Assembly: GCA_044892505.1 (NCBI GenBank) | Contig: CM097883.1 | Span: forward strand, 18,786,001 to 18,850,000 | Direction: 5' to 3' | Length of the DNA stretch: 64,000 bases | Source of the DNA: Schmidtea nova | Lineage: Eukaryota | Shown here: in pieces, positions 1,972 to 32,034 of the stretch | Position numbering within the stretch: the stretch's first letter is position 1 | How the letters are laid out: each line of letters opens with the position of its first letter | Translations under genes and position numbers: made by a program | Notes under the pieces: model-generated | Database searches by the model: none | Told to the model about the DNA's origin: nothing | The model's input: the letters and a program-made list of their open reading frames with translations, nothing else

Positions 1972-2583
1972 AACCCCAACTAAACTTCCCTTGTTGATTT
2001 AACTAAACAAAACCAGAATCTCAAAAATTAAAATATCCAATTTGGAATGCGCACACAGACGCTACTCGAGCAAATTATCACCAAAAAGCAAACAAAATGA
2101 GTGCGCACACAGACGAACACCTTCCATGGATGGCAGGTACCCAACCCCAAGGAATTAATACATTATATTCGTTTTTTTAAGCCCAAGAGATGAAGTGGGA
2201 AGCCGAAAATTGTAAGATGTTCGATAGCAATCGATTTTAGTGATAAAAATTCATTAGAGGCCAAAGTCTACAATCAATGTGAAAATCTATCAATACAATA
2301 AAATTGAAATCTAAAATTTAATGATGATCAAATTCCGATCGCCCTAGACGGAATTCCAAATAATATTATAAATAACTTTGCGCCGATCGCTGTACATAGC
2401 GCGGTAATCCGAATCAATATTATCCTGATCGCCGTACATGGCGCAGGGAAAATTAAATTACATTATCCCGACCATGGTATATCGCGGCGATGAAAAATTG
2501 ATTTAATATTAGTTTTTTTGTTAACCGAAATAATTCTCGTATTGAATAAAACCTGTTTTTACAATCCTTTAATGAAATCATAG

Positions 2584-3066
2584 ATGTCGACAGCCGATTT
2601 AATGGAAAAATTGACCCAGATCCGAAACTCATTAAAGGAGAGCATGGAAGGCAGATGGGCTACCCAACTCGAGGAGTTGCCCCCGCCGATTTTGCGTACT
2701 ATTAACGCGCAGGTATATAAGTAACGGCGCAGGTTTAATCGAATAAGCCCGTTCTCCATCTGGGTTGGAGGAAAAGATCGAATTATCTACCGGGGACGGC
2801 TGGATTGGCCACTCACAGAGAAAAACTACTCCAGAAAATTTGGACGACTGATTATCGTGATCTATGATGCCGACAAACAGCCACACCGGATCATCTACTG
2901 GGGACATATCCCTCGCAAGGAACTGTGCAAATTAGGATTACAAGCGTTCATACCGCGGAAATCTTTTGGAAGAGAATGCCAGGACGGACAACCTCCGTGG
3001 TCATGGGCCCAGCTTAGAAAGATGCCGATAAATTATGAAATGCACAGTTTATTTAGACGACCCTGA
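2584..3066 (+). pseudogene. Diverged LTR ORF-A paralogue with premature TAA at 2722-2724
   Basis: IYRGRLDWP...IYDADKQPHRIIYWGHIPRKELCKLG aligns by eye with RWEGDTDWV...LLDELKQPRWLLSTGMMSGKELHQLG of ORF 8123-8758. The ATG at 2584 follows an acceptor-like ATCATAG. Confidence 0.65.
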
Positions 3067-3224
3067 TTCCGACGATTTCATAATGATAATCAGTTAATAA
3101 ATATCGTAGTGTTGATGATTTGTCTTTGTTGTATTTTGTCCCGACCATAATTAGTAATTGTATATTTCTAAATAATGCTTTAACATAAGAGTAACAAACT
3201 ATTAAATCCGAATAAATTACAGAA

Positions 3225-3821
3225 ATGAACCTAGAAACAGCGCAGAAAGAGCTCGAAAAGATGTGGAGGATCCGGAGAGCCCAGGATAAGGAGTTGGGTC
3301 TCCTCAAAGAACAATTGGCCAAGGCTGAAGCGCAAACCGCCTATTTGCGTAAAAGCTGGTTTGCTCCTGCTAGAATGAAGGAGCAGATCGGAAAGACAGA
3401 ACGCGCTCAACGGACGGCGGATGACTACAGAATGGAATGGGAAGCTACGAAAATCGAGCTTCGAAAGTGCTTGCACTCGGTAACAGCCTCCTATATCGAG
3501 CGGGAGCTAAAGGATCAAATCCGACCGATCACCTACCAAGAATGGACGGTGGAGAGAAAACAGGGAACTTCAATAGGCACGGACGTCGACGGCCTCATCG
3601 AAACCAGCAACGAATCAACTCCATCAGTCAACTCGACCACTCCATTTGTCAGTACCCATCAGAAACGAAAACGCATAGGACAGAAAAGGCTGCGACAAAG
3701 AAAGCTGTTCGCCCAAAAGCTGCAGAATCAAATCGAAGCTCTGCACAAATTATCTGAGGAGGAATTGTTGAACGAAGTATTTCCCCCAGAAGGAATTTTT
3801 AGCAACTTGATGGACAAATAA
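3225..3821 (+). CDS. LTR ORF-B paralogue (coiled coil + basic region), 198 aa
   Basis: KSWFAPARMKEQIGKTERAQRT, KRKRIGQKRLRQRK and LSEEELLNEVF align with ORF-B at 8950-9513. Confidence 0.75.
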   Translation: MNLETAQKELEKMWRIRRAQDKELGLLKEQLAKAEAQTAYLRKSWFAPARMKEQIGKTERAQRTADDYRMEWEATKIELRKCLHSVTASYIERELKDQIRPITYQEWTVERKQGTSIGTDVDGLIETSNESTPSVNSTTPFVSTHQKRKRIGQKRLRQRKLFAQKLQNQIEALHKLSEEELLNEVFPPEGIFSNLMDK

Positions 3822-4206
3822 ATGGGAATTTAGAATTTTTTTTTTCGTTCTTGTGATTTTCTCAATTTAGTTTAAAATATAAAGTAATTAAATAATCGTA
3901 AGGGTATCAAATTTGAAAACTTCATGAAAATTTTATTATAATAAAGATCCATTCTCCAGATTTTAGTGTGAATTACAGAGCATACCACTAAAGCGTAAGT
4001 CCTTCTAACGGCAGCAATGAACCCGTAAACATAAATGGGGAGTAGTACTAGCGATAGTGCTCACCTGCCCATCATTGTTTAACCACCATGCGCATCACCA
4101 ACTTGATTATCTAGGGAAATAATCAAGGGCGCTTGAGTGTTTAGTTGCACATTTTATGTATGATCATGGATGAGGGATCCCTAGTCATTGTTAGAACAAT
4201 TTTCAT

Positions 4207-4470
4207 CTAACCCCTCCATGAACCCAACAATTTTAAGAGTGCTCCTGCCTTGTGGTTATCGGATACTGGCCACGACGGATCTCCCTCCCATCTGATTCTA
4301 AAATGATACGGGAATGCCATCGCCCGGATATCAGCATTTACATGGTGTCGCTTCCATGCTCGCAGGTGACGCTCGGCAGAGTCCCTGATCCGTTCGGGGA
4401 TCGAATTAGCATCGCTTAATATCATCTTTAGGGGTTGGCATCGCCGCATACTGGATTTCTTTGTTGACAT
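4207..4470 (-). pseudogene. Truncated LTR ORF-A paralogue
   Basis: AERHLRAWKRHH...FRIRWEGDPSWP matches the RHLRRW...LRWEGDTDW motif; the frame ends where the LTR is truncated. Confidence 0.75.
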
Positions 4471-6039
4471 AACCTAAACAACAGTGATTAGGGTGATTCG
4501 TTATTTCGGTCATCATCATCATTCATCGTGTCTCGTCATCATGCATATCATACTCATCATACAAACACGTCCCAGCATCATTCCATTTCATTAAATAATT
4601 AATTACCCTCAATTTGTCCATTCTTGTTCTTTCATTCATTTCAACTGAATACTAATATGTTGTTTTGTTATTTTATTACATCTATCGCAATACCCACACG
4701 ACTTGGCCTATTGCGAATTTGGTTCATACCATTCCAGCTACAACATATTAATGCGTTTATGTCACTGTAGTTCAGCATACACTATCTGATCGATATCATC
4801 ATACTAATGCATTCATTCAATTTCAAGTCAGCATTCACTACTTGATCAACATTTTTAAACGTTATGCTTCATTATCTTTGTTATCAAATAAATGTACATG
4901 TCGAGTACTCCCTTTGGGGTGTTTATGCTCGTGGACGAACGGGTGTTTGGTTTTGACGAAATCTAGTTAGTAGTTGATCTCCTGCGGTGCGACCCAAATC
5001 TACGGAAGTAAGCGGGCTTATGCACTCACTTTCGTCTCTGCATGTTCGATTTTAGCTTTATATACGACTTGCTGCTATCGATACTACCCTTTAGGTTTAT
5101 ATCTGGCTTTGTTAGATTTACTTGCTAGATACATGTATAACCGTTCCTAGGGTGTCGACCCACAAAAGTTATTCTCTGATGACCTCAATCTTTACAATCA
5201 CTACGACGGGTTGTCTAGCTCTGATAGCGATTGCATTAGGCCCTGATGACTGTGTGGTTGGACTACGATGTTATTAGAACATAATGCCGATGTGCACCCC
5301 TCCCAAATTCATTTAGAAGACCTATTTGCTCGCCGCATCAGCCCTCCCTTGAGAATGTGTTGCGCTGAGAGGCCCGAGATCCCGTCAGATCAGATGACCT
5401 TCGGGATAACTTATCGAGTTTAAATCATGAGGGTTTATTATCATTCAAAGACACAAGACTATAACCATACCTTTATTGATTCACGACAGTTCACAATGTT
5501 TCCAATTGACCACAATCTTTGATAAAATGACGCTCTGGTAAAGAGTGATTTTTGGTGGTAAAAATATGACACGGTAGAAAATGACTGTTGGTAAATATGA
5601 CTAACTTGACTGCCGTATTTATACTTATTTCTGTTAACGGCCAGCCAATCAGAATTCAGTATGCATGCAAGTATTGTGAGCATTTCATTTTTAATGCTTA
5701 TCTTTGTGTACTTAATTCGGTAAGTTTTATGCTTATTCATCCGTGAATCTTTTTGTTATATTTATTTTATTTTAGATTCTCATGTTCTGCTCAGTTATCC
5801 ACCCACTCCTTGTCAGTTTTTGAGTAATTTGCTCTATTGTGTTATTCTGCTTTGCATTCTGCATGAGTGAGTTTTTATTGTTGTTACTTATTTTAATTCA
5901 TTGTTCATTTTTTCAGACTTTGATGCATACTGATGAATTGTCGGTATTTGGTTATTTATTTTGTTATTGTTTTTCATATTATTCATTTGTATTGATTTTA
6001 TTTCTCTTTTAGATTGTCGATGATTTGGCTGGACCAACA
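4207..6039 (-). mobile_element. LTR of a related family, truncated at its own 3' end (U3-R plus part of U5)
   Basis: The minus strand starts TGTTGGTCCAGCCAAATC at 6039 (main LTR: TGTTGGGCCAGCCAAATC). It has CCAAT/TATA-like boxes, AATAAAG|GTATGG (5477-5465), the conserved double hairpin (5328-5406) and a truncated ORF-A. Confidence 0.8.
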
Positions 6040-6592: not shown

Positions 6593-6963
6593 TGTTGGGC
6601 CAGCCAAATCGAGCAGCATCTGAAAATAATGTGCAATCAATAAAATAAATTAAATACAGAATAACAACAAAATAAATTACCAACACCAAAGCGTAACAAA
6701 ATAGGCGGCAACATCTAAAAGAAATAACATATTAATCAAAACAACAAAAATCTTCAAAACTCACTCATGCGAAGCAGATAAAATTGGAATATGACAGCGC
6801 GTGGGCGGATGTCACCGAAGACCTAAAGCAAAATCAAATAAAAATTAAATCATACAAAAAATAAACTTACCGCATGATTAACCAAACAAATCGGCGAGTT
6901 AAGTTAGGCAGCAAAAAGCCGACAACATGAAAAAAACGAAGCAAACATACACACATACTCGAT

Positions 6964-7002
6964 GCTGATTGGCTAACCAACAACACCGGTTCAGTATAAA
7001 TA
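6964..7002 (+). promoter_or_regulatory. LTR promoter: inverted CCAAT box (CTGATTGG) and TATA box (TATAAA 6995-7000)
   Basis: Canonical motifs and spacing; similar CCAAT-then-TATA arrangements occur in the related LTRs at about 5.6 kb and 42.9 kb (minus strand). Confidence 0.7.
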
Positions 7003-7093
7003 CTGAAGTAAAATCAGTATTTGGGAATGTCATTTTTACCGAGTGTAACTTGCAGTTGAGCATTGAGAACATTGTAAATCCAACTTGAAGAGA

Positions 7094-7107
7094 AATAAAA
7101 GGTAATT
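7094..7107 (+). promoter_or_regulatory. Poly(A) signal AATAAA abutting a 5' splice donor (AAG|GTAATT)
   Basis: AATAAA 7094-7099, GT 7102-7103. Related LTRs show AATAAAG|GTATGG and AATAAAG|GTATGT at the equivalent position. Confidence 0.65.
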
Positions 7108-8122
7108 TGGTGTTATGTTATTGATGTGTCTAAACCCTCATAATTGTTTATAACCATATTAAAATCCATAAGGTTTTCCGGAGGCCTAACAGCCTGACGG
7201 ATTCTCTGGCCTCTCAGCGCAACACAACCTTTCGGTTGTGAGGTGCTGATGCGGCGGGACCATAGGTGTACTAAATATTTGGAAAGCGGAAGGGGTTAAA
7301 TGCACATAGGGTATCGAGTAAGACCTAACGATCATGAATGAAATCAAGGTAGAAATGATCTAATATAAACGTTATGCATCACGATGATAGGGTATCGAGT
7401 ATAAACTAGTAGTCGTAAACGAGCGTAAAGTGAAGCCCGTTTGTTTTGGAAGGAGATATATTGTGGCGAAGTCTAGACGAGGGATAGACGTGTAGTGAAT
7501 AATATTAGGGTAAATGAATTAGGCGACGACGAGGGTAGGTATATGTCAACCTTAGCGCGTACGAGTTCGGGCATAGTGAACCTAGTATCAAGGGTTAAGG
7601 ATAATCGATAACCTCTGTCAGCTGTGTTTAGTCGCCAGGAGAGATGATAAATAAATCACAGGCATCGAGAACTGATAAAATGATGAACCCCAGTGAGTAA
7701 GTACCACAGGAACTTACGAGAATTACCCGACATGGGATGATCATTGCTGGTTAGATGAGGAAGTGATTGAGAACGACTGATGAAATTGAATGTAATAAAT
7801 AGTATTATCCATAAATAAAAACGGTGGTAGTTGAGTGATTGAACCTGATTGATGAGTATTAAGTATAATAGCGATATGATTAACAAATGCAACAAATCGT
7901 GCGTAGCTGAATCGTCGAAATAAAAAGCGGAGTACATTAGCTTCAAGCTATCATATAACACGACCCACATTAAGTCACCAACAATGATCCGGCAAAAATA
8001 CAGAATGTACCACTCAGACCTACAAAATTTCATAAATAATACGGGTGGGTCGACTAATATAAATAGGTCCGTTCTACCATAGAATCCGTAGAGTAAAAAC
8101 AACCATCTTCTTTAGAAATACT

Positions 8123-8758
8123 ATGGTGAAACTGGAGAGTTGCCGAGAGAAGCCGATGGTCGCGTACCCTATAAAGATAGAGAATACCATCCTTCGTAGG
8201 AAACGGCGCACCCGCTCCGTCCTCAGACCAAATACGAACCCAAATATCAGAGGAGAGAACGAAGCACCCCGAAAAGTTGTCGAAGTATCACGTCGCCACC
8301 TACGACGATGGATGAGGGCCCATATGAGCTCAGCCGCTAGCACCCCAGCTTGCACGTTTGAACTACAGTTGCGGTGGGAAGGAGATACCGATTGGGTACC
8401 CTCCTCGGATCGTATCAAGCCGGAAAATACCCGATGGTTTTATCAACTCCTAGATGAGTTAAAGCAACCCCGCTGGCTACTGAGTACCGGAATGATGTCC
8501 GGAAAAGAGCTACATCAACTCGGATACATGCTGCTAGACAGGCCTCGGTGTGGCGACACTGGGGAAGTCTTCGCCTACTCAAACGCGCCAGGAAGCGTGT
8601 CATTGGACCAACACCCCGAGCCCAAAGACCTTCGTCTCTGGGAGGTATTCATCTTTCGGGACAAGTTAAGTTGGAGCCCTGTCCCGGAGTTATACCATGA
8701 GAGCGGAATCCGTCGTGACGAGAACACGGCCGACCAGGAATTACGACCCTTCATCTAA
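8123..8758 (+). CDS. LTR-encoded ORF-A, 211 aa, unknown function, Arg-rich N-terminal motif
   Basis: Intact in both LTRs; four diverged homologues in the window conserve all or part of RHLRxW and RWEGDxxW. Confidence 0.8.
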   Translation: MVKLESCREKPMVAYPIKIENTILRRKRRTRSVLRPNTNPNIRGENEAPRKVVEVSRRHLRRWMRAHMSSAASTPACTFELQLRWEGDTDWVPSSDRIKPENTRWFYQLLDELKQPRWLLSTGMMSGKELHQLGYMLLDRPRCGDTGEVFAYSNAPGSVSLDQHPEPKDLRLWEVFIFRDKLSWSPVPELYHESGIRRDENTADQELRPFI

Positions 8759-8949
8759 ATCGCAAGGAAACCGATCCACCGAAGGAATATTTGATGTGTA
8801 TTAAAAATAAATGTATTAATTTTTGGGTTTTGTTATGTCTTTGAATGTATGAAGCGATCTGAGAGTGAAACACCTGTTTGATAATAAAGATAGCGACTGG
8901 GAGAACATACAAACCATACATAACCCGATTAATTATACATTTTACAGAG

Positions 8950-9513
8950 ATGAATGAACATCCAACTAGGAACTACAAACAAGAGGCAAAAGAGCATAAA
9001 GCTCGATCGCGAGTCCTAGAAAACCGCTTGCGGCAGCTAAACGAAGAGCACCAGCGAATTAAAGCCACGTGGTTCAACCCAGAGAGGGTTAAAACCATCC
9101 TGCAAGCCAGATACAGGGCGGAACGAACAATCGACGAGCAAGCTAGGGAGGTAGCAGCACTAAAGACGGAGCTGTCAAATTACTTGAGGGCATCAACTCA
9201 GGAGTTTATCACCGAGCAACTACGCCCAGTGATCAGGGCTAGCACCTTTAATCGGTGGGTGGACACAATATCGATGACAACAAGTACCCAAACGGAAATA
9301 GAAACCATCCCAATCACAACTACCCCAACGTCCCCAATAATTCTGGAAGGCTCGAAACGAACAAAGAGACGGAATCGCTTGGGAGCGAAAAAGCGTAGGG
9401 AGAGACGCGCATATGCGGATCGCCTAGGAATCGAAGTAGACTTGCTCAGTGGTCTATCTGAACAAGAACTACTAAATGTAATTCGACCCGCTGTATTGTT
9501 GAACTACAAATAA
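8950..9513 (+). CDS. LTR-encoded ORF-B (coiled coil, TSTQT motif, basic region); ATG at 8950 preferred over TTG at 8878
   Basis: Homologues at 3225-3821 and 40585-41142 start at the equivalent MN; acceptor-like TTTACAG precedes the ATG. Confidence 0.8.
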   Translation: MNEHPTRNYKQEAKEHKARSRVLENRLRQLNEEHQRIKATWFNPERVKTILQARYRAERTIDEQAREVAALKTELSNYLRASTQEFITEQLRPVIRASTFNRWVDTISMTTSTQTEIETIPITTTPTSPIILEGSKRTKRRNRLGAKKRRERRAYADRLGIEVDLLSGLSEQELLNVIRPAVLLNYK

Positions 9514-9903
9514 ATGTATAAAATGAATGATTTGACTTGTCTTGTTTGTTTGACGCATGTATGAGAATTAAAAGTAACAAAAACCTGGTTCATTTAAAGC
9601 TGCAGATATCTAAAAGGTAAATTACCCTAGGACAAAAGAAAAGAGCATAAGTGGGACCGAAAGAAAGCCACAGACACCTTCTATCGGTAGTGGTGGACCC
9701 GTGAATAAACAAGGGAATAGTAGCCGAAAGGTTGCTCACCTGCCTTGTCATTTCACAACGTTGACACAGTACCAACATGATGAGTAGTTAGGGATACATC
9801 ATGGGTGTCAGCGGGGGAATGTTTTTATGTTGGCGAGATCACCCTAACATATAAAATCATAACGATCTCCGTTGTCAATCTAACCAACACACCAGCATAA
9901 ATT

Positions 9904-9922
9904 TGGGGGCTCAGCCGGGATT
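9904..9922 (+). other. Primer binding site complementary to tRNA-Pro
   Basis: TGGGGGCTCAGCCGGGATT versus the tRNA-Pro/MLV-type PBS TGGGGGCTCGTCCGGGAT (2 mismatches); it starts after a 6-nt spacer following the LTR end. Confidence 0.8.
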
Positions 9923-10443: not shown

Positions 10444-10902
10444 ATGGAGAACAAAATAAAAGAAATGCAAACGTTTTTCGAAACAAACAACGAGACAGTG
10501 GAGACAATAACGAGAAAGTTAAAACGACTCGAGGTAGGAGAATATCACGAACCGACAAACAACACAGAAAGAGCCGAAAGGATGATGAGCTTAAGTGAGA
10601 ATAAGAACACAGTGGATACAGCAACACGATATCAGTGGTATAGAGAAAGATTAAACAACCCTGAGATGAATATCGAGTGTCACAGGCTAGAACAACAGTT
10701 AACAACAAAACACGATGAGTGGATAAGAATAACAACAGAACATACGAGACAATATCTGACGTGTCATATCTGTGAAATGAATAAGATACAGATAATGTTG
10801 TTGCCATGTGGGCATTTCCGATTCTGTAATGAATGTAAAATAAATGAACGATGTCCTATGTGCAACCTTCCCGTATCCGAGAAAATAACAGTGTACTTGT
10901 AA
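10444..10902 (+). CDS. Coiled-coil protein with C-terminal IAP/MDM2-type RING finger (putative E3 ligase)
   Basis: CHICEMNKIQIMLLPCGHFRFCNECKINERCPMCNLPVSEKITVYL-stop has the spacing and terminal position of IAP RINGs; no BIR domain is seen. Confidence 0.85.
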   Translation: MENKIKEMQTFFETNNETVETITRKLKRLEVGEYHEPTNNTERAERMMSLSENKNTVDTATRYQWYRERLNNPEMNIECHRLEQQLTTKHDEWIRITTEHTRQYLTCHICEMNKIQIMLLPCGHFRFCNECKINERCPMCNLPVSEKITVYL

Positions 10903-13846: not shown

Positions 13847-16513
13847 ATGAGTGATCACAGAGAGGATCTAAGAGAAAAATTCAAGGGCGAACCATTTAAT
13901 GGAGACGCCAGTAGATTGGACACGTTCCTGAAAGAATTTGGCATATTCGTGGATATATGCTGATGGAGTGCAGAAACGTTAGCGAATCGAATCCCGCTAT
14001 ACTTGAAAGATAGCGCATTGGATCTGTATATTGAGAAGAGATCGGGAAGTAATCCACCCAGAACGTGGGAAGCAATCAAGGAGTTCTTCCAACAGACGTT
14101 TGGGATAAATAAAGTGTTGAACGAAGCGTTCGATGAGTTCTCAGCAAGAAAACAGAGGAGAAACGAGTCAAATGCAGTGTACGCAAGTGAATTAAGAAAG
14201 TTGGCGAAACTGGCATTCAACAGAGGAAGCCCAGTAGACGAAGAATTGATGACAGCGTTATTCGTACGAGGTCTCAGGAGACCTGACATCAGAGCACAAG
14301 TGGGATGCAAAGGATGTAAAACAGTAGATGAAGCGTTGGAAGCAGCCAACCTATTCGAATTGCATATGGCAATGAATGACATGAGAATTACGGCGGTAAT
14401 GGGAAAAACGACAGAAGATGAAGAACAAGGAAAAAGAAACATGAATCAAAGTATTCCCCATTCACAGAGATTGTTCAAAGAACCGCCAGCGAGGAAGAAT
14501 AACGGATATATCACAGTAAACACGAATGGAGGAAATAGTTACAATGACAGGCAGAATAGGCAATGTCAGACGTGTGGGAAAAACGGACATTGGCAACAAG
14601 ATTGTTTTCAGAATGTAGCCTGCAAACTGTGTGGACAAAAAGGTCACTCAGAGAATCGATGTTATGGGAAAACGTGTTACACATGTGGGAAAACGGGACA
14701 CATGTCAAGAGAGTGTAATCAACAGAGAAGTTGGTCAAACAGTGGAAATAGACAGAACTATGGAAATCGACCAAGCTATGGGAATCAGGGTCAACAACGG
14801 AATAACCCAAACAGCAGTGCAAATGAAGCCAGTATGAAAGAAGCTAAGTTGAGACAGGAGGTATCCAGATTACACGAGATAATCGAAAGCATGGCAAAAG
14901 GAAGCCAGCAAGCTGCTCAACCAAAGATAAACATGATCCAGTTAATAGAAGCTGAGGCCGAAAGAGAGAATAGAGAAAGCCAACAGAAACATAATCAAGA
15001 ATGGGCTAGAGTACGACGAGAAGAAGAACAAGTCAGGCAACAACGATTACAACAGTTAAAAAAGGGAAATCCAAGGATCAACATGATGCGAGCAATGATG
15101 GAAGAGAAGCAGCAGGATGAGTCAGACGAGTCAGAAGTTAAAGAGAAAAGAAACGAAGGACAGAAACAAGAAGAAGTGAATCAGGAAGTAGAAGTCGCGG
15201 AGCAGAAGCAAAAGGATGAAGAAGTAGAAAAAGAAACAGAAACGGAAAAAGAAGTAGAAAAAGAAACGAATCAAGAAGAGGAAGTAAGAATCAAACAAAG
15301 AGGAATGTTGGTGATCATGCCGAATGATCACGTGTGGCGATTCAAATACGATGTAAAAGAAGAAGTGGGAAGACTGTTCAACAAAGTAAATGAGATGATT
15401 CCGGGAGTGACGAAACTGCCCAGAGAAGCATTCCTACAAACAGAGGATTTACCGGAAGTAAAGTTGAAGATGACTGATATATGGGAAGATATGGGAGTAA
15501 CAGAAACGAAAATAAACGTGATGATCATCAGAGAGGTGGAACCGGAAAAAATCCCACCACCAGTGAAACATCAAACTCGGATTAGTCGAATATTCAAGGG
15601 AAAAATAAGACGAAGACGGTTGGAAGAAATAGACGAGTTGGAGAAAAGAATGGGAAAAGCCGAAATAATGGGAAACGAGAAGGAACTAACCCAGGAAGTC
15701 AGCAAAAACGAAACGAGACCAACCGCGCATATTGGGATGCTGAGACACCCAAGACAAGAATTGTCAGATGAGGAAGACGACAGCGAAGTTAGCAGTCTGG
15801 CAGGAGACATGCTAAAGGAACCAGAAAACGAGGACAAAAAGATGGAAGTAGTCGAGACAATAGAAACATTGTCAGTAAAGGAAGACGAAATTCAGAAGCT
15901 GATGGATAACGCGTTGGAAGTAATCCATAACGAGGAGTTTATCGACACGAAACGATATCGAAAGTTTATACGAGCAGTATGGCAGATGAAGTATAAAAAG
16001 TGGTTACAAGAAAGAGAAGTGAGAGTAATACAAGAGTTCATAGAGAGGTTATTGAAAGAACCACTCAACGAATACATAATACAGATATGGATAAACGAGT
16101 GTTCACCGAGAATCTGGATAAGGAACCCAATGACGGATGGAATTTACCGATGGGTTGAAGACAGATTGGGAAGCTCGTACAAAGACAAATTCATATATTC
16201 GGAAAACGGATTGGTGAGAAAAGGAACGCATATGATAGACACAGGCATATGGCCAGGAGAAATAACAACGCTATCTATATGCAACACCAAAAAGGAAGAG
16301 AACTTACAAGGAATCGTCAAAGAAGCGAATACGTGTTACGAGATGAGAATAAAACCTCAGTTGATAGAGGCAAAAGAAAGAATCTTGGCGGAGAATTTGA
16401 ATACGATGATAGAACAGATCATCCAACAAATCAAGAAACATCGAAAGGAATTGACGAAAAGCGAGTATGAGAATTTGAAACAGTGTATCGAGAACATACG
16501 AGATACAAGTTAA
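13847..16513 (+). CDS. gag: Gag (capsid, three CCHC knuckles, long C-terminal extension with two ubiquitin-like folds); interrupted by in-frame TGA at 13961-13963
   Basis: FGIFVDIC*WSAETLANRIPLYLKDSALDLY is gag N-terminal-like; knuckles are CQTCGKNGHWQQDC, CKLCGQKGHSENRC and CYTCGKTGHMSREC. The frame is otherwise open back to 13346 except for a TGA at 13481. Confidence 0.9.
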
Positions 16514-16555
16514 ACGAGACATTCAAATTTCAAGACGGACAAGCTAATTGCCAAG

Positions 16556-19500
16556 ATGGGAAAAGAAATGTTTAAACGAGGAGAGGTATCAGATCTGAAG
16601 ATTACCGTGAGATTACCAAACGAAGAGACAAAACAAATTGAGGTAATACCAGATAGTAAAGTGGGAGAAATAGTAGATGTCATCAATGAGACGATATTGC
16701 AACGAGAACGGGAAGATGAATTCGAAGATGACATCGCGATAAAATACAAGGAACATCTACTGAACGAACGTGACGAAAGACGAGCGTACAAAATCGGCAT
16801 ATGGGATAATTATCAGACAATACACGTCATCAGAATGGATGATGTGCAAAGAGCAACACCAAGAGATGAGGAAAGGAAAAAGAAACGACGAGAGGACGTT
16901 ATGCGTAAGCTGAGGCAGATAGTAGAAATTTATCGGAACTGGCAGATGAAGCCAGAATGGGAGACAATATTGGGAGAATTGGATCTTAACAGACGACGGT
17001 TGACGCCAGTAGAGAGGCAATGGGATAACAAAGAAAAATGTTGGAAAGTGAAAAGAGGCGTGTATGAAGAAGATCCAGAAGGAGAAGACAGATACGAAAC
17101 GAATACGAAACGGATATGTATGGTAACAAGGAGAATATTACCAACGGACTTAGACGGACCAGAAACTGCAGTAATATGGGCAGAATTGGAGAAATTGAAA
17201 ACGAGTGAATTGATCGAGCTATTGAGAGGAAATACTCGGGGAAAAAGACAAACAATAAAAGGCTTAGCACAATTCATAATCTCAAATGGAGAAGACATAA
17301 CGAACTTGAGAAAAGTAGCTAAAGCGATAGCAGAATACAAGAGAGTTAACGAGTGGTGTCCAGAGCAACTAGACGATGTAATAAAAAAGTGGAGAAACAA
17401 AGAGTTTGCGGAGGAAACGCCACAGAAAATACATTTGAGGATAATGTATCCGAATCAGAGAAAAGAAGAGTTTTGGGTGATGCTAACAGAAAAAGTGAAA
17501 AGTGTTAAAGAGAAACTGATGTACGAACTACCATTCCACCTGCAACATCAAGGACGATCGTTGGATAATAATTTAGAAATCTGGCTGACACCAGTACAAT
17601 TGGACCTAATGAACACGCTAACAGTGGCACAAATAGTGGGTCAACCACTGAAGTTTAAAGAGGAAAAGAAAGCGAAGGGAAGCATGAGTACACCAAGTCC
17701 GATGAAGTCAACAATGACCCCAGGAACAAGTTCGGGACAAGTAAGAACAACACCAATAAAAACGAGAGAGAGAACACCGCCAGAAGCGTATGACGTCGAT
17801 GAGATACTAACAGATAGTGACGAGGCGATAGAAGAACTAACAAAGTTGACTCAAAAACCAACGGCGAATATTTTCGACAGAATAATACAGATGCCAATAA
17901 CGTCACCAGCAGAAATCGACGATCAAGGAGTGGAACAGGAGGTAGTCATAGAAATGGTAAACGATTCGGAAGACGAACAAGGACAACCACAGTTTACTCA
18001 AGAAATGGAAAGATGGTTGGAACAACGAGCAAACGAAGGAAGGGATGTTACAGAAGAAACAGGAAGAGCAACGAGATTTGTAGAAACCGGAACTGGAATG
18101 GAAAAACGACCAAGAGGAAGACCAAAGATAGATCCAGCAACAACAATCCCAAAATCAAGGGAAGAAAGGAGACAAGAGCAATGGGAGACTTGCTTGAAGA
18201 AACTGGATAAAATCGCAGAGATCAGAGGAAAAGAGGAGAATCAAGTTTGTCAAGGAGAAGAATGGCTCACCAAAACGATAATGGATGTGTTAGCGGTAAT
18301 TGACCCAGAATTAAAGAATTTGTGGCGGATAAACGAACCCAGTACAAAGGCAAGGATGCTACACAATGCGATAGCACCAATTATGCCAGAATTGATAAAA
18401 GCGAAAACAAAATCAAATCATCTGGATTGGCAAGGAACCACGATGTTAATAAAAAAGCTACTGAACGGAACAGAAACGGACAGCAAATATCTAGTAGCAA
18501 TCTCGTATACGATATACAATTTGTTAACGCTAAGCCGAGGAAGCCCGAAGTCAAGTCCGATGGGAAGACATATCAAGAATACGGCGATGATTATCGAGAA
18601 AGAAATTGAACCATATATCCTCAGAAAAGGAGGATGGGAAAAGTTCATAAAAGAAAATCAGACAAAAGAAGGTTCTAACGTGATGAGAAAGAAACTCGAA
18701 GGAGTATTGAGAGAAATGGAGAATAGACAAACGATGCAAGGAAACGGAAGATCGACGTTGAATTTAAACTCGATAATCATGATGATGTTAGTATGGTTGT
18801 TAAGCACAGAGGGTGTAACAATATTTGAAGTATTTGATTGTGATCAAATGAAGTTAGGAGAAAAGTACTCATTGAGAGGTACGGAGCAATGCAAAGATGC
18901 AACTCCAGTAGAGTTGAAAGAGAATAAAAAAGAACAATGGTACCACGTATATCAAGAGGCAGAACTAATAAAGACAATGGTGAATGAATGCAAGGTACAG
19001 AAGACGAGATTCGCATTCTATTGTGGGAGAGGACATTATTCAGCAATTGTCATGCCAGGAACAGAAAGAGAACCAATCGTATTGCAAGGGGAAGACTGCG
19101 AAGCATTATTTAAACATGGAGAAGTGACAACGAGAGATAAAATCAAGATAAAAGGAAAGCCAGGAATGATGTTGCAGCAGACGTATTATGTAGCAGGACG
19201 GATTACGGGAGGAGAAGGATATTGTCAAGGAGAAACCTACCCAATATTCGGGGTACCTGCAACCAACTTAGTAGTGATGGATACGTACATAGTCGAACTG
19301 AAAAGCTACGAAGCATTCTTCGAACCAACAACAGGAGAAATGAAAACGTTATCCATGTGTAAAATTGACAGAAGCATGTGTCAAACGGGAATGTCAACAT
19401 TGGTGTATAAACCAAAAGTGAACGAATGTCAATTACAACTGCTACAAGGAACAAAGTTCGACGAAATTCAAGGAAAAACGTTCCAGGAAGAGGACGAGGA

Positions 19501-22500
19501 CGACAAAGCTAGAGCAAAACATCTCAAAGAAGCTTTAGAGAATAAAAGACAACTGAAACCGGATCATAGAGAGAAACGGATAGAAATGAGAACCACACCA
19601 ACAGTGTTGATAACCACAAACCAGGATGTGGGAATGAGATTCATAAAAGGGAAAGCAACCCTTAAGTGCAGTACAACAGTATACGAAACGAACTATCCAG
19701 GAATATACGTGTCAAAGCAAGAAGTGCCGAATGCGAAACCCAAGATCGACACAATGGATATCAAGCTACACTTGTATGTGAATAATAAAATGGATTTCTT
19801 ATTCCATAGAGGACAAGCCTCATTGCAAAAAGTGTACTACGATCTGATAAACAACGATTGTATACTGAATCGGGAAATATTGAAGACAAAGTTGGCCGTA
19901 GCGATTACGAATCCAGATAGCGCGATGCCGTTATTACCACTGAGAGAAGGACATTTCGGAAGAGTGGTTGGAGAAGCAATGTATGTATACATTTGCGAAA
20001 AGACACACGCATCGCTAGCAGCAACAACGCAGTTGAAACCTGGACAATGTACAAACGAACTAGAAATCGATTACAAAGGAAAAGTACGATACGTTCAACC
20101 GGTGACGAGAATCATCAATCCACCAGGATTTGAACCAAATCCATTCAACTGTAGTAATGCGTACGGACCGCTTTATCAGAAGCCAGATGGCAAATGGGTT
20201 ATGTTCCCAGGAAGAACTGAAGTATTAGCACCAAGAGAATTTGAGCTAATGCAGTTGTCGAAAGATAGACAGTTCAGCGACGTAGATGTCTCAAACAACG
20301 GAATCTATAGTCCAAAGGATCTAGAAGCAGCAAGGCAGAATATACTATTTCCGGCAAGAAGAGAAGCATTACTGTCAAATATCGTAACGATAACGGGAGG
20401 AACGAATTATCGAGAAGGACCAAATTACGAACTGCTGTTGTCACCGGCACATTTCAAGAAAGCCACAGAAAACATGATGAAGGCAATGTGGGGAAGATTC
20501 CTGATATTCGGACAAATGATGGCTGGAATACTGGGTGTTATATTGATAATACAAATCGTCAGAGTGATAATAACGCAAATGTTAGCGTGCTTCGATATCT
20601 ACAAGAGAGAAAAGAAAGTGAATTGGAAAATGGTAGTAGGGTTTTTACCATTCCTTGCGAAAACAATGGTGTTACATGGACACTCAAAAGACATACATCG
20701 AATAAAGAGGTTGTTGAAGATACTTGCAAAAATGAAAGGAACTAACGAAGATGTCGGAAGAAAATTCAAAAAGATAATGCAAGATGAACAAGCAAGACGA
20801 CAACTGAAGAAGGAAAGGAAAGGATTATGGGAAAGAGTGAGAGGATATCGAACACAAGATGATTCAAGTAATGATGACGATGATGATGACGATCGAGGAG
20901 GACAAGCGAATATAAACCAGATTCCACAATACACCGAAAAGAGTGCAGTTGAGAATTGGAGATACAGCGCTCCACCTCAGTCAATGTATAACGAACCGAT
21001 ATACAAAGCGAAGCCGAATATGATGCAGATGATGCCGATGACAAGTATATACCCGATAATTCCAGAAGGATGCAAAGTAAAACGGGGTAGTAGCGTAAAC
21101 TCGTTGGAAGACACGCACACGATAGCAGTTATGTCCACAAATATGGGACCCATCTTAACAACAACCGTAGAAATAAACGGAAGAGAAATCGAAGCTATGA
21201 TCGATACAGGTGCGAACATTTCGGCAATCGACATCAACTATATACCAGAGAAAAACCAAGGAGAAATCGAGAAGACGAATGTACATGTAATCGCGTGCAG
21301 TCAAGAGACAGTAGAGGTAGCCGGAAGATGGTTCGTAAAAATTAGGCATCGAGGTGCAGAAATCAACACGTACATCGCTGTAATACCATCGCTGAGTGTA
21401 CCATGTATTATTGGAACTGACCTGATGCCAGACCTGTTCAAAGAAATCGTGATTGATCTAGGAGCAATGAAGCTAAAAGATAGGACAGGAAAAATCTGCA
21501 GGATGAAAGTTAAAGTGGCAAGTGCGGAACAAATAGTAGTGCCAGCGAGACATGAAATGATGTGTTACGTCAAGATCGATTCGACAATAAAAGGAGATAT
21601 GGTATTCGAACCAAGTAAGAAGTTCGAAGCAAAGAAAGAATTACCAATGGCAAGAGAATTGGTCACGATAAACCAAGAAGGAGAAATACCGATCAATCTG
21701 GTGAACTTCGACGAAGAGGACAAGATAATATACGAGAATGAGAAATTGGGTAAATTGACACCCATGTCCGAAATCGAAATACCAGACAAGAACGAGAAAA
21801 GCAAAGACGAATTACCATGGAAAATCGACAGTGTGTTGTTAGACGAACGACAAAAAGAACAGTTACAGAAACTGTTGATGGAATATAAAGATATATTCGC
21901 AGCATCAGATCTGGATTTAGGAACATGTGACGTAACCTTACACACGATACCATTGACGGACGAGACGCCAATCGCATTACGACCATACAAATTGGCAGAA
22001 GCTCAAAAAACAGTGGCAGAAGAAGAGGTACAAAAGATGTTAGATGCAGAGGTCATCGAACCTAGTTGCTCACCCTGGCAATTCCCAGTGGTGATGGTGA
22101 AAAAGAAGGATGGAACTCAGAGATTCTGTATCGATTACAGACGATTGAATGCAGTTACAAAAAGAGATACGTACCCACTGCCAGACATAAATGAAATGTT
22201 ATTGACGTTACAAGGAGCAGCTTATTTCACGTCACTAGATTTAAAAAGTGGATATTGGCAGATCAAAATGAAAGACGAGGATAAAGAGAAGACAGCATTT
22301 ACAATCGGACGAGATCTGTACCAATTCAAGAAAATGCCGTTTGGGTTAACAAACGCGCCAGCATCATTCCAGAGATGCATGAATTTCGTAACACATGGCA
22401 TAAAACAATGCATGGTGTACATCGACGATCTATTGATCTACTCCGCAACATTTGAAGATCACTTACAAGATATCAGAAATGTGTTCGTGAAATTAAGACA

Positions 22501-25500
22501 GTGGAAACTGAAATTGAAGCCGTCAAAGTGCGATTGGGCAAAAGAAAAAGTGACATTCTTAGGTCACATTGTGTCAGCAAAAGGAAAAGAACCAGATCCA
22601 AGGAATATCGAAAAAGTCAAAGAATGTCCACCACCAAAGACAGTGACTCAAATACAAGAATTTTTGGGATTATGTGGATATTATCGAAAGTTCATCAAGG
22701 ACTATGCCGGAATATCAAAGCCAATGCAAGAATTGGTAAGACAAGATGTGTCGTTTGTATGGGGAGAAGAGCAGCAAACAGCATTTGAGACATTACGAGA
22801 CAAACTGATTACAGCACCAATATTAGTCCATCCAGATTTTAAGAAGCCATTTTTGTTAGCAACAGATGCAAGTGGATACGCAGCAGGAGCAGTACTAGGC
22901 CAATTCGATGAAGAAGGCAAGGAAAGAGTAATTGGATATTACAGTCGAACCTTCAGGAAACATGAAAGGAATTACTCAGTCACGGAAAGAGAAGCCTATG
23001 CGATAATATTGGCAATCAAGCATTTCAAGTACCTACTGTGGGGTCATGAAATATATATCACGACGGATCATCAACCATTGGTATGGTTAGGCCAACATAA
23101 AGAATCATCAAGTAGATTGATGCGTTGGGCGATGCAGTTGCAGGAATACTCACCGTTCATAAAGTTTAAAGCAGGAAAAGCAAATGCAAACGCGGATTGC
23201 ATGTCAAGGTTTACATTTCCAGAATTGGTGAACCTGAATGCTCAAAAAATATGTGCATTAATAGCGGAAGATTTGGATTTCAGCGAATTAAGGAAAGATC
23301 AACTCGAAGATGAGGAGTTGGGATTGATCAGCAAGTATCTGAAAGAAAGGGAAATGGAGATATTCGGCAAGAACCAAACGTTACGCGAACATATGCAGAA
23401 ATATCAGCACCGATATGTGATGGAAAAAGGATGGTTATTGATACAAGATGGAGAACGAAGATTAATGTGCTTACCTGCGAATAGGCGAAAGGAAATCATG
23501 ACTCAATATCATGACGGAAAATTAGGCGGACATATGTCAGCGAAAAAGACAATCGGGAGATTGAGACAAAAGTATTTTTGGCCAACCATGGAAGATGATG
23601 TGAAAGAATGGATAAAGAACTGCTTAACCTGTGCGACAAGAAAGAACGTCGGAACGAAGTGGAAAACACCACTAAAACCTATGCCAATACCTGCAGAACC
23701 AATGGCAACAATAGCAATGGATGTAGTTGGGCCATTGCCGGAAAGTTTAAAGGGGAATCAATATATCTTAGTAGTCACGGACTACCTAACGAAGTTCCCA
23801 GAAGCGTTCGCAATACCAGATCAAAAGGCGAAAACAGTCGCAAGAATATTGGTGGAAGAGATATGCTGCAGATATGGAACACCAAAGAAAATCCTAACGG
23901 ATCAAGGAACGAATTTCATGAGTGAAATATTGGACGAAGTTACGAATTACTTCCGAATTGCGAAATTACGGACATCCCCATACCATCCGCAAACGAACGG
24001 TCAAACAGAAAGGTTCAATGGAACATTAATACGCATGTTGTCGAATTACGTCAGCAAACATCAGACTGACTGGGATGAATATATCAACTTGTGTTTAATG
24101 GCATATAGAATGTCAATACATGCGGCAACAAAGCTAAGTCCATTTCAACTGATGTACGGAAGAGATTGCAACTTACCGATCGATTTAGAATACCAACCAC
24201 CATTATCACAATACATGGAGGTTGACGATTACGTTACAAAGTTCAAAGAAAGAATGCAAGAAATCTGGAAAACGGCGGAACTAAACATCAAGTTCTATCA
24301 AGAGAGTTATAAGGATCTACATGATCAGAAAAAGAATGTGAAAGCACATGATTTAAAAGTTGGAGATTGGGTGATAATCGAGACACCAGAGATAATACCC
24401 GTTACGGTCAAGAAACTCCAACGACCAGGCAAAGGGCCATACGAAATAACAACAGTAAATGAAAACAATGTGCGAGTACGATTGGTGAACAATCCATTGG
24501 TAAGACCAATATACGTGAATGCATGTCGATGCAGGAAAATACCAAAGACAGCAACTCTATCACCAGAGAAACGAGTGATGACAAGATCACAGACGGCGAG
24601 AATCAATATGTTACGAATACAACAAAAGTCGCAAACAAGTCTAGAAGACAACCAAAGGGAGATAATAGACATCAAAGAACTGGCAAAGAAAACCAGAGAA
24701 ATTATACCAGAATGGAAAAGGTGGCACGATTTCAATATACTGTCAGAAGTTCGAAAGAATGTAATGGATTATGCGAAGGATAGGACAGCACATCCAATAA
24801 CAAGAACGCTGCTCGAGGAAATCCCTCAAACATTGAATCTACAAGACAAAGACGGTAATACCGCGTTGCACAATGCAATCGAGCACAGTGGAAACGAAAA
24901 AGTGAAGGAAATTGTAGAGATGATACTCGAAGGTGGAGGAGAAATTGACAAAGTGAACTGGGAAGGAATTACTCCACTCATGATGATGACGATTCACGGA
25001 AGAAACGATGAAATAATCAAGCTATTCGGAAACACCAGATCGAATTGGTTGACAAAAGATAAAGAGGGACGAACATTCTTGAATCATGCAATTGATAGAG
25101 CGAATCACCGAATACTGAAGTATATCACGGAAAACGCCACGTGGGAAATCGATGAACTAACCAGAGGATCGATCATGAAACAAGCAATCGGGGTAAAGAA
25201 CAGTAAAACCTGGAGAATATTGCTAAAATGGAAACGACCAGAAGGAGATTCGTGGGTCGTAAATTGTAATGAAGTATTCACAAGGGGAGAAAATGCGTTA
25301 CTGAAACATCTATTGGAAGTAACATACGATCCAAAAACACTTGCAGTGTTGATAGCGAGAGATACGCTACGGGTTAGTGAAAACCCAAGAGAATACAAGT
25401 TGGAAGACAGGAAGAAAGAACTATTCGGATTAATCAAGAAATGGTGTGATAAGCAATGGAATCCGGATATGAGCTTCGAACATTTCTATGACATCCAAAA

Positions 25501-28500
25501 GCAGCACAAAGAAATAAGCAAGAGATATAAAGAGCTGATGGAAGCATTGAAATATGGACAATTCTTCAGACAAGCAGTGTATCAAGACCAACGGATGAAA
25601 CAGATGCAAACACGAATAAGAAGCAAAGCAGTGTTGTTCAGTGCAAAAGCCGATTATCAAGAGAGATTAGACGCAATCGTAGCAAAAGCACAGGAAAAAT
25701 TATCGGAATTCAAAGAGAATAAAAACTCGTTGGAAATACTAGGAGCAATTACAGAGAAAGTGCACAGATATGCACAAGGGGATTATAACGAGAGTGACAT
25801 AGAAACGATCAAGAATCAAATGCCAGTAGCATTCCTATTATCGAGGGATGGGAGATTGCCAATACACTGGGCATTACGTCGAAAGAAGGAAAACGAAGTG
25901 CTGGAAATAACGAAAGCGATGGTCAAGTGCGAAGCAGATATGAATACGGTTGATGATGATGGAGATACAATCATGATAATCGCAGCAAGAAAGAAGACGA
26001 ACTTTAAAGTGCTAAGTGAATTATACGAAGCAGGAGCAAGAATCGAAGGGAAAAATGGAAAGAATAATTCCATCATAGATATCGCAATACAATGGAACAA
26101 CTTTGAAATGATCAAGTTCATAAAGTCCATCAAGAGACAAGAGGACATAGAATACCTGGCGAATAACGTAAAGAATTTCAGTCTGACAGTAATGATACAC
26201 GACATAGAGAAAACGAGAGCATTACTAACATGGGTGAATCCGATCACCAAGGAACCGGCATTCAAGATCAATGACAATATGGAACAAAATCAGAATTGGT
26301 GTATCAGAAGCGCATTATTAAGACACAAAAAGCCAGAGATAGTAGAAGAATTCCTAAAGAGAAGAGATTTGAAATTCACGAACAATCCAAAGGAACAGGA
26401 ACGAATGGGAAGATGGAAAGAATTGTTCAGAAAATATGTAAATGAGTGGGCAAATGCCAAAGAAACAATCAAGCAAAGTAGACTAAAAGACATGGAACCA
26501 TTCAAAGAGATGGAAATACGTGAATTCGAGTCTAGCACACTCGCGGTTCAGGCGTATGAAAGATTGATTGAAGAAATTAATGTCGAGGACGACATTTTCA
26601 AAGGATCAGGGGGTGGTTACAGAGATTTCGACGACAAAAGCAACAACGAAGAGAACAACGAAGACAATGACAACAAAAGAACGGAGGATAATGAAAAAGA
26701 AAGACAAGAAGAACCGAAGCCAACGAGAAACGACAAGAAAAGAGAAGCAGAAGAACGAGAAAACAATGGAACAAAAGACGAACGTACAAACTATGGAAAA
26801 CGAACAGGAAGTCTACTTTTGAGACCGGAAATGTTGTGTATTGCGATATTGATAACAATCATCGGACAAGGAGAAGCCAAGAAACAATACGTCACGCTAG
26901 AGATAATCAGAGGAAATGAAATATATGAAAGAATATGCTGGAAAGAAAACCTGAAGAAAAACGATACGCTGAAGTGTATATTGTCAGATCTGAAGCGAGA
27001 CGTCATCCAAATCAAAGGATTGGAGAAAGAAAAGTCATACATAATATGCGCAATAAAGCAGAGAGGAGAACCAAAAGCACCTCAAGTAACTGCATGCCAA
27101 TTATACAAAGCAACGGAAGCGCTGAAGATACAGAAATGGATTGAGAAAAGAAGCGAAGAGACAACGAGAAGAACAGAAGTGGAATCAGAGAAAGGGAAGA
27201 ATCAATCTGAAGCAGAAGAAGGAATCAGAAACCGAACAGAGAAAGAAAGAATAACCAAAAATCCAGCGGGCAAATTAACATTCCAACCAGAATTGATATG
27301 TGTAGCATTAATATTAATCCTCATTAAGAGAATCATGGAGGACATAGATATCAGCGTGATGACGTTAGTAAACATCCAAGATCAACGAACAACGAATGGA
27401 AGATGTTGGGGACGAAACAATGAGGTAATTGGAATCAGCGAAACAAGAGAAATAGTAGAGGCGGAGACAAATGAGGAAATAGAGATAACTGAAATAGAGA
27501 CAGATAGAAAATATGAACTATGTCTCATGGAAAAGGCAGCAAACGGAAACAGACCAGGAACAAGCGAGTGTAAAGTGTTCCAAGCAAAGGAGATAATTGA
27601 ATTCCCAAAAAGAAAGAAACAAGATCAAGAAACGATTGCGAATGAAGTAGTAACCGTGGAGATAAAAAACATTGGTCGGAGAACAATTGGGATGTGTTGG
27701 AGAAAATACATCGGAGTATCGACCAGTCACGTACTACCGCAATGCAGAACGAGAGAACGAGGAATCCCGTTTCAACTAAATGGATTCGAAGTCGGACAAG
27801 CTTACGAAATTTGCGTAATCCGAAGAATAAGAGAAGTAATACAAAGAAGCCTGGAGTGCAGACTGTACAAGACGCCAGAGCAAATTAACGGTACAAGAAC
27901 GATCGAAATGGGAGGAAGTCGACAAAGGAAAAGAAAGTCAAGAAGAACCACGACAACCAACAGTCAAGGAACTCAACAGACAACAGAAGGGACGTCAACA
28001 AAAAACGAACCGGAATCAACGACCCTGATAATATGGAAGATCCATAAAAAGGTCCTAGAAATCTGTTGGACATTAATGCCAAACAGTATGAGAGAGTCTC
28101 CACGAAACTGTCAAAAGACATCAAATGACAAAAGGGAAACAATCGAGGTAGAAATGAGGAGGTTGAAAACAAACGCAGAATACGAAGTGTGTGCAATCGA
28201 AGAAGTAGACGCACAAGGAAATCAACAAGAAAGGTGCGAAACCTATTACACGCCAAGGAACATAACGATAAAAGGGGGAACCCGCAAGTTAGAATTCCGA
28301 GAATTGAGTCAGAAAAGAGAACAAACAGAGACGGAGGAAATACTACAAAATCAACAAGAAAGATGGGAACCCGAGAAAGTGATCGAAGAAGTCAGACAGA
28401 GACAACAACAATACAAACAATGGGAAGCGGAATGGAAAGGTCAATATGGCGTGATGATAAACCAAAGTGAAACTCCGAAGATGAGCATTGGGAAAACAAT

Positions 28501-28877: not shown

Positions 28878-29228
28878 ATGAACCAAGAAAATATCGAGAT
28901 GTCAACGATGACAAGATGGAAAGTGCAATGTGACCTGCTAGCCAGAACAGTAAACGAATTACAGAGCCAGTTGACGGCCAAAACGCAATTATTAACCGAA
29001 AGTTATAACTGTAATTTCGAAGCAATGAACAAAATCGAGATCCAACAAATACAGATAAACGAATTACAGAACGAGAACCGAACATTGAATGAAGTGAACA
29101 ATTGGCAAGCAGAGGAAATTGACCGATTAACGAGACATGAAGAGGAAGAGATACCGGACAGTTGGACGAGCTGGATTGTAAATGAGATAGACGTGTATCC
29201 AGAGCCAGATTCAACTGAGGATGTATAG
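28878..29228 (+). CDS. 116-aa coiled-coil accessory protein
   Basis: Intact ATG-TAG ORF with the element's codon bias, heptad-like Q/E/L pattern, ending PEPDSTEDV. Confidence 0.7.
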   Translation: MNQENIEMSTMTRWKVQCDLLARTVNELQSQLTAKTQLLTESYNCNFEAMNKIEIQQIQINELQNENRTLNEVNNWQAEEIDRLTRHEEEEIPDSWTSWIVNEIDVYPEPDSTEDV

Positions 29229-29319
29229 TGAATAAGCGGAAAATTGTGTAAATACGTGTAAATAAAGAACCAGAAAAAAATCAAAAATATGGGGAAATTG
29301 ATGTAAATATTGTTGTAGA

Positions 29320-30732: not shown

Positions 30733-30821
30733 TCAGAATGAACGACCCTGTAAATAAAGTGTAAAAATCGACGACAACAATAAACGTATAGTATAACAAG
30801 TGTAAATTTGTAAATTACAGA

Positions 30822-31961: not shown

Positions 31962-32034
31962 AAAGAGGCGAAAAATCCGTGTGTAAAAATGTACAAATCG
32001 ATGTAACAGGTATTAATCAGTAGAATAATCAGAA

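Follow-up and report, generated by a model that had tools for sequence, protein, structure and literature searches.

Analysis of a giant gypsy retroelement of Burro type in the genome of Schmidtea nova revealed the presence of two open reading frames, ORF-A and ORF-B, inside each of its long terminal repeats (LTRs) and downstream of a predicted promoter; codon-level comparisons indicate that both are almost certainly real genes under selection. The reading favoured here as a whole, to which we assign a probability of about 0.4, combines these selected LTR genes with spliced mRNAs driven from the LTR promoter and with a role of protein B as a regulator resembling Rev and CERV. The window referred to below is the whole stretch of 64,000 nucleotides that was analysed (contig CM097883.1, positions 18,786,001 to 18,850,000).

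The element, here family f1, occupies positions 6593 to 36069 of the forward strand (29,477 bp, internal part 22.9 kb) and is flanked by the 4-bp target site duplication (TSD) CGAT. Its 5' LTR (6593..9897, 3,305 bp, TG...CA) and 3' LTR (32765..36069), both on the forward strand, show 3 differences over 3,305 bp; a primer-binding-site-like motif lies 6 nt past the 5' LTR (9904..9921, +) and a purine-rich tract precedes the 3' LTR. Regarding the internal genes, Pfam identified a long frame at 13850..28753 (+) in the order gag, fusion-glycoprotein env, protease, RT, RNase H, integrase and ankyrin, with in-frame stops at 13961 and 16511 in the copy of the window; gag is of the CCHC type, the env domain (PF24664, Monjiviricetes-type) spans residues 1009-1350 and the protease residues 1536-1626. 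A RING-finger accessory ORF (10444..10902, +) shares the acceptor and poly(A) layout of the other accessory ORFs, four of which follow the long frame in a row (28878..32559, +), encoding a 116-aa protein, a TRAF/MATH protein (470 aa; a separate downstream ORF, the ankyrins being in the long frame), a coiled-coil protein (379 aa) and a 174-aa protein, each with a YAG 1-7 nt upstream of its ATG. BIR, BCL2-like, SUMO-like and dUTPase-like domains gave no Pfam match at E<=0.01 in the f1 element; several of them were published on the basis of the more sensitive HHpred. The element resembles Burro/GYPSM1 as described in excerpts of PMC6431247, in its size of ~30 kb (with up to 25 kb of internal sequence in Burro/GYPSM1), in a mononegavirus-like fusion-protein env that stands in the gag-protease frame between these two domains, in a CCHC gag, and in the ankyrin, MATH/TRAF and RING cargo with accessory ORFs, whereas that description, in the excerpts available, contains neither LTR genes nor the acceptor/poly(A) cassette layout.

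ORF-A (8123..8758, +; 211 aa) is preceded by an acceptor-like TAG 7 nt before its ATG and followed by AATAAA at 8806, and is predicted to encode an orphan alpha/beta protein; ORF-B (8950..9513, +; 187 aa) has an acceptor-like CAG 2 nt before its ATG and an AATAAA overlapping its stop. Both are placed inside the LTR as the initial annotation had claimed, and both are duplicated in the 3' LTR (34295-34930 and 35122-35685). The pair is kept in order in three families of the window, again as claimed: in both LTRs of f1, in a lone f2 LTR and in f3. The f2 LTR (40192..43315, -; 3,124 bp) has no matching TSD, its ORF-A is frameshifted near 41680, and its intact ORF-B (41142-40585) has 74% identity to f1 B, while the 3' part of an f3 LTR (2120..4219, +) holds an A-like gene with one stop (2584-3063) and an intact B (3225-3821; 29% identity). 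The further ORF-A remnants reported earlier are likewise present, namely the 5' part of ORF-A at 4470-4231 (-) in a truncated f4 LTR (4226..6039, -) and a broken ORF-A at 37893-38482 in a decayed f5 LTR fragment (37893..38661, +).

Several other features of the window were recorded. An insertion of ~890 bp splits the f3 LTR into 872-1232 and 2120-4219 and contains an ORF for a TCP-1/CCT chaperonin fragment (1150-1953, -), and an f3-like terminal block (43434-43634, +) lies beside the lone f2 LTR, where the latter starts. A stomatin/band-7 ORF without introns is found at 52895-54061, a tandem array with a 21-bp unit at 54784-56700 and pieces of another gypsy element at 59511-62416; pieces at 49648-51838 are putatively DNA-transposase-like.

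The genome was searched with three different B queries, each of which gave at least 150 matches, and copy counts are therefore lower bounds; following these matches led to seven families (f1-f7). The pair lies inside the LTR in f1, f2, f3, f4, f5 and f7, with LTRs of 3.0-3.6 kb and common TGTTGG...CA ends, and the order of A and B is kept across at least six families, with protein identity falling to about 20-30%. Although only 14-20% identical to A in sequence, the upstream gene of f3 is truly homologous to it (hhalign 95.8%, E 7.6e-9); in profile comparison the acidic A of f6 and f7 joins f3 A at 90.2%, its direct link to the main A group being 1.0%.

Regarding individual loci, a stretch of 34 kb at G000:C3:27926000-27960000 (L104-L107) contains some ten A+B cassettes from several families, mostly on one strand. 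Four that were checked are solo LTRs, each flanked by a 4-bp TSD of its own, and two LTRs stand nearly head to tail, which suggests insertion hot spots. A 25-kb f7 element (G000:C2:64519870-64544970; L200, L201, L210, L211) has LTRs of 3,572 bp that are 99.9% identical and keeps gag, env, ankyrin, TRAF and A+B, with no match to RT, RNase H or integrase; it is a young non-autonomous derivative. Four f7 loci have a second primer-binding-site-like motif 270-410 bp downstream of the first. Two 6.2-kb direct repeats (98.7%) at G000:C1:19315300-19333900 (L101-L103) each contain an f5 cassette on the strand opposite to the internal genes, as an LTR nested in an LTR at both ends.

Selection was assessed with codon models on sets of non-redundant intact copies; broken copies were excluded and most loci were reached via ORF-B similarity, both of which bias omega downwards, least for A in f1, f3 and f7 and for B in f4. 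With this bias, omega was 0.27 for A (23 sequences) and 0.10 for B (20 sequences) in f1, 0.32 (15 sequences) and 0.18 (24 sequences) in f3, 0.48 (3 sequences) and 0.40 (5 sequences) in f4, 0.14 for A of f7 (7 sequences) and 0.18 for B of f6 and f7 together (14 sequences). A dN/dS of about 1 had been named in advance as the value that would speak against a functional cassette; the eight sets gave 0.10-0.48, clearly apart from it, and omega=1 was rejected in all of them (2dlnL 10.7-381). Between f1 and f2, 83% of the synonymous sites of B differ versus 16% of the non-synonymous sites, a ratio that is reversed in shifted frames; changes in the ORFs show an excess at third positions, and among 36 f1 LTRs only 4 indel events fall within the two ORFs (none shared) versus 323 outside (150 shared). 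That no homologue or fold of A and B was found outside this genome would suit the alternative of chance open frames held by recent LTR amplification, but this alternative is refuted by the low omega of all eight sets, by the third-position excess with the reversal in shifted frames and by the avoidance of indels, and its residual probability is negligible. The selection signal is that of replicating lineages and says nothing of selection on solo copies themselves.

LTRs are normally non-coding, and the coding ones, such as those with sag and nef, have the gene upstream of the promoter. The predicted promoter of the f1 LTR (6968..7035, +) consists of a CCAAT box (ATTGG), TATAAATA at 6995 and an initiator-like site, with an inferred start at ~7025-7030. 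Six families (f1-f5 and f7) share this arrangement at ~350-410 bp from the LTR start, as do 48 of the 50 LTRs whose two ends were defined, and the promoter region ranks with the best-conserved LTR parts. At 7094..7107 (+) it is followed by AATAAA and then a donor-like AG/GTAATT, a predicted leader donor with a possible R poly(A) signal. The combination of AATAAA and a donor-like GGTA occurs in 32 of 36 f1 LTRs and also in f2, f4 and f5, ~100-170 nt past the promoter motifs, whereas f3 and f7 have donor-like sites without AATAAA; a donor-like site 110-190 nt past the TATA box was found in all six families examined. Foamy-virus LTRs are similar in that a donor and a poly(A) signal are adjacent, possibly as a U1-controlled switch, and differ in that the foamy-virus donor, in R, lies upstream of the poly(A) signal (excerpts of PMC3694450), while in the Burro-type LTR here it lies 1-3 nt after AATAAA and the pair is not found in every family.

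The accessory ORFs share a common layout. A YAG stands 1-7 nt before the ATG in 7/7 accessory ORFs versus 165/702 ATGs in the element, and an AATAAA lies within 60 nt of the stop in 6/7 versus 291/1,679 stop triplets (65/218 within the LTR); the stop-to-ATG gaps of ~75-190 nt hold an AATAAA and then an acceptor. Among family copies the acceptor and poly(A) layout was seen in 86/90 and 90/90, respectively, copies of one family not being independent, and in f7 the YAG sits 13-14 nt upstream of the ATG. The simplest reading of this layout would be one short leader joined to alternative terminal exons, and, judged from sequence, expression of A and B by splicing from the LTR promoter is probable. 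Transcription would start near 7027, cis-splicing would connect a leader of ~75 nt to the acceptor of A, of B or of one of the other accessory genes, and every accessory mRNA would end at its own AATAAA, so that a solo LTR would form a self-contained two-gene unit supplying A and B in trans. The main rival on expression, in which trans-splicing of a spliced leader releases A and B from a polycistronic RNA and no cis leader is added, arises because the spacing is like that of flatworm and nematode operons (~100 bp in Macrostomum and C. elegans; excerpts of PMC8629364), and the same acceptor layout would fit it. Against it stand the donor-like site that all six families examined keep past the TATA box and a tapeworm case in which an LTR donor is used in cis with an acceptor that formerly served trans-splicing (excerpts of PMC4558846), and trans-splicing is considered improbable here. 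In four sequencing runs whose kind is not recorded, 6950-9900 was evenly covered and showed no GT-AG joint, a result that says nothing on expression. The terminal block contains an invariant GCTCACCTGCC which, read on the reverse strand at 9735-9745, has the sequence of a good antisense splice donor.

The initial annotation had placed the genes in a ~2.8-kb U5. Their position downstream of the promoter holds, while the U5 assignment depends on the AATAAA at 7094 being the genome RNA's 3' end; as this signal is unseen in f3 and f7, the genes may instead lie in a long R, and R plus U5 would measure ~2.9 kb under either assignment. The recombination patterns of 36 f1 and 15 f3 LTRs, used to locate the U3/R border, gave a mosaic. 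If the promoter were instead in the conserved 3' block, A and B would be in U3 as the last genes of the 3' accessory row, expressed from the 3' LTR like MMTV sag, and solo LTRs would be silent. Such coding in U3 has a precedent (excerpts of PMC12789967), and conservation within the LTR is highest in the terminal block, which has an AATAAA at 9704 in f1, but this signal is not kept in f3 or f5 and the CCAAT-TATA arrangement stands at fixed spacing near the 5' end, upstream of both ORFs, in six families, which makes a U3 position very unlikely. MMTV sag, rem exon 2 and HIV-1 nef are alike in having coding sequence in both LTRs, and there the coding sequence lies in U3, upstream of the main promoter (excerpts of PMC12789967), whereas the f1 LTR has two whole genes downstream of a predicted promoter and donor, with their own acceptor-like and poly(A)-like signals.

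Solo LTRs were examined in two samples, in which three TSDs lie in AT microsatellites and give weak calls. Among 40 sampled f1-type LTRs there were 14 TSD-flanked solo LTRs, 17 5' LTRs, 5 3' LTRs and 4 unassigned ones, with a primer-binding-site-like motif following 17 of the 40; the 20 best-matching f3 LTRs comprised 15 TSD-flanked solos and 5 unassigned ones, none followed by a primer-binding site. The best matches of f3 (L031-L060, L165-L184) are almost only solo LTRs. The earlier proposal that solo LTRs would remain protein-coding units is supported, as to open frames, in this sample, picked by ORF-B similarity, with both ORFs open in 13 of the 14 f1-type and 7 of the 15 f3 TSD-flanked solos. 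Genes downstream of the promoter would survive the reduction to a solo LTR, and recombination would thus not remove the coding output.

Two conserved RNA structures were predicted in the LTR. The first (7172..7265, +), just downstream of the donor, has two hairpins (z -4.44, 0/200 shuffles) with two-sided changes in 7/23 pairs across 13 copies of four families, and is a candidate packaging or response element. The second is the terminal block (9653..9897, +), a candidate packaging or priming RNA with covarying stems; its last 150 nt have a mean p-distance of 0.03 in f1, and it gave z -1.58 alone and two-sided changes in 14/60 pairs. The covariation counts of both structures are inflated by relatedness. 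No Rfam match at cut-off was found over 6593-10500. Both structures would be present only in unspliced RNA.

Regarding protein B, the architecture comprises N-terminal coiled-coil helices, a TQTE at residues 113-116, a linker, a basic helix (136-156) and a hydrophobic C-terminal tail; the structural model (pLDDT 75.9) shows long helices and the basic helix. The coiled coil and basic helix are kept in all families, with 8-11 K/R in 17 residues of the helix in 6/6 families measured. Homology searches were negative, neither B nor the B alignment finding a homologue among 5.8 billion proteins of similar length, and B giving 0 matches at E<=10 to PDB sequences. The Pfam REV profile reached 18 bits versus a cut-off of 22 (best E 0.0031, 5/15 members) over ~26 residues of the basic helix, and bZIP_1 reached 18.7 versus 27.6 bits on the same helix (best E 0.0019, 4/15 members); the two profiles fit about equally, so a basic helix is shown and not a family. 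Membership of the Rev family was rejected, the REV match being below cut-off and confined to the basic helix, and so was a bZIP with leucine zipper, since the bZIP_1 match ends at profile positions 41-43 of 64, with no zipper following, and the model shows short broken helices. The Rev-like character of B suggested earlier is thus retained as to the basic helix and not as to significant REV homology, and the structure prediction and remote homology search that had been proposed yielded the helix of B and no significant homologue of A or B. A hydrophobic pattern like a nuclear export signal, scored against consensus patterns, is present at the C-terminus in 9/15 members and absent in f3 and f6; such patterns are common.

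The basic region of bZIP proteins has the signature N-x7-R. This signature is found in 18/20 f1 and 4/5 f4 copies of B and, together with the fit of bZIP_1 to the basic helix and the conservation of the promoter region, would favour B as a protein that binds DNA and activates the LTR promoter, in the manner of foamy-virus Tas or of a bZIP basic region lacking its zipper, and that is dimerised by the N-terminal coiled coil and LC8, with A as partner; however, the bZIP_1 score is below cut-off, no zipper follows, and the signature is missing from 24/24 f3 copies, and a transactivator is regarded as unlikely. Preferred, tentatively, ahead of this alternative and of the anti-silencing role discussed below, is that B acts on the RNA of the element, like Rev and CERV, which the coiled coil and basic helix kept in all families make plausible. 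Rev, Rex, Rem and CERV are accessory proteins made from spliced mRNA, with genome RNA kept unspliced (excerpts of PMC10309623 and PMC12789967), and B would be similar to them in its conserved basic helix and its modelled oligomerisation-type helices; it differs in having no significant sequence or fold match to them and in being encoded in the LTR. In the gypsy-type element Cer1, genome export needs the spliced accessory CERV (excerpts of PMC10309623), and this keeping of genome RNA whole via CERV is the ground for placing B with Rev and CERV; an env-bearing element of a flatworm is reported as the sister of Cer1 (excerpts of PMC13524379).

The TQTE of B is found in 20/20 f1 copies and in f2, with related anchors in f4 and f5, an IGTD without Q in f3, and a non-canonical sequence without clear anchor in f6 and f7; gag and pol, 4,819 aa in all, contained no LC8-type motif. 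In f1 and f2 the T-Q-T-D/E beside a coiled coil and a disordered linker, with variants in f4 and f5, resembles that of LC8/DYNLL clients (motif as in excerpts of PMC3078936), from which B differs by the lack of a basic residue at -3 in f1 and by the degenerate motif of f3, f6 and f7. The TQT-type motif is a candidate LC8 anchor beside a coiled coil, but many TQT peptides fail to bind LC8 (excerpts of PMC6607443). One chromosome carries clusters of LC8 (dynein light chain) genes, about 20 in number, nearly identical and without introns (G000:C2:5.2-45.1 Mb; L117-L124).

An alternative built on this motif is that A and B are host-modulating or anti-silencing proteins, B binding LC8 and chromatin or nascent RNA and thereby blunting piRNA-guided silencing. 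The presence of TQTE-type anchors in f1, f2, f4 and f5 and their absence from gag and pol would agree with it, as would the RING, TRAF and ankyrin domains of the element, which belong to host interference (PMC6431247), the part of LC8 in driving Piwi co-transcriptional silencing in Drosophila (PMC7861614) and the rise of Burro RNA upon knock-down of smedwi-2 (PMC8532177), all as given in excerpts of these sources. Against it, the LC8-type motif is not universal and nothing links A to silencing. The Drosophila partner proteins are also not known in planarians, and the anti-silencing role is rated as slightly less likely again than the transactivator.

Protein A is an orphan in all searches made. 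Alone it found no homologue among 5.8 billion proteins of similar length; its profile gave only 3 repeat-rich chance matches among 1.84 billion representatives, Pfam gave no match at cut-off, and nothing better than E 0.28 was found among PDB sequences. Its model, of modest confidence (pLDDT 61, pTM 0.58), places a helix against a beta sheet and leaves the ends disordered; Foldseek found no match at E<=0.001 in PDB and BFVD, and the best of 48,161 chains had Z 3.3, which does not prove a new fold. A search of the ESM Atlas for relatives of A and B reached 0.78-0.79 at best, and none was found in viral or metagenome contigs. The core of A has conserved W, P, R, E and G. A Tat-type protein is marked by a conserved basic RNA-binding patch. 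In A such a patch (6 K/R in 8 residues in f1) is reduced to 2-4 K/R in other families, and the net charge is -17 in f7 and -12 in f6; since the basic patch is not conserved, the Tat-like role once proposed for A is unsupported. Regarding the Arg/Lys-rich stretches reported for both proteins, that of B is kept in all families measured, while the RRKRRTRS of A is specific to f1. By exclusion, and as a guess, the most likely role of A is not the binding of nucleic acids but that of a cofactor in protein interactions or of a host-modulating factor.

In the preferred reading, the 26-kb genome RNA would have to pass at least 7 acceptor and 6 poly(A)-like sites unprocessed, a need that a Rev-like factor would meet. 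B would associate with itself, bind RNA and help the genome RNA, still unspliced, to avoid splicing and internal polyadenylation and to exit the nucleus; the two conserved structures, located in the intron, would be its candidate targets, and in some families the TQT-type motif may recruit LC8 as a dimerising hub. An extended version, in which Burro-type LTRs are autonomous two-gene modules within a 2.9-kb R/U5 and solos supply a Rev-like, LC8-clamped B and a new-fold A cofactor in trans, is speculative and doubtful. If it is true, hundreds or more of solo LTRs would be a distributed source serving full-length elements, and strong-stop DNA would be ~2.9 kb long.

Burro elements themselves (excerpts of PMC6431247) and LTR genes in U3 (excerpts of PMC12789967) are already known. 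In the literature searched, which had the primary Burro papers outside its scope, no genes inside Burro LTRs are described, and relative to this literature two complete genes downstream of an LTR promoter, kept in solo LTRs, would appear to be new. They add two orphan proteins to the Burro family, which is tied to planarian stem-cell biology (excerpts of PMC13465017), and offer a way to study what keeps a genome RNA of 30 kb intact despite its many splice and poly(A) sites.
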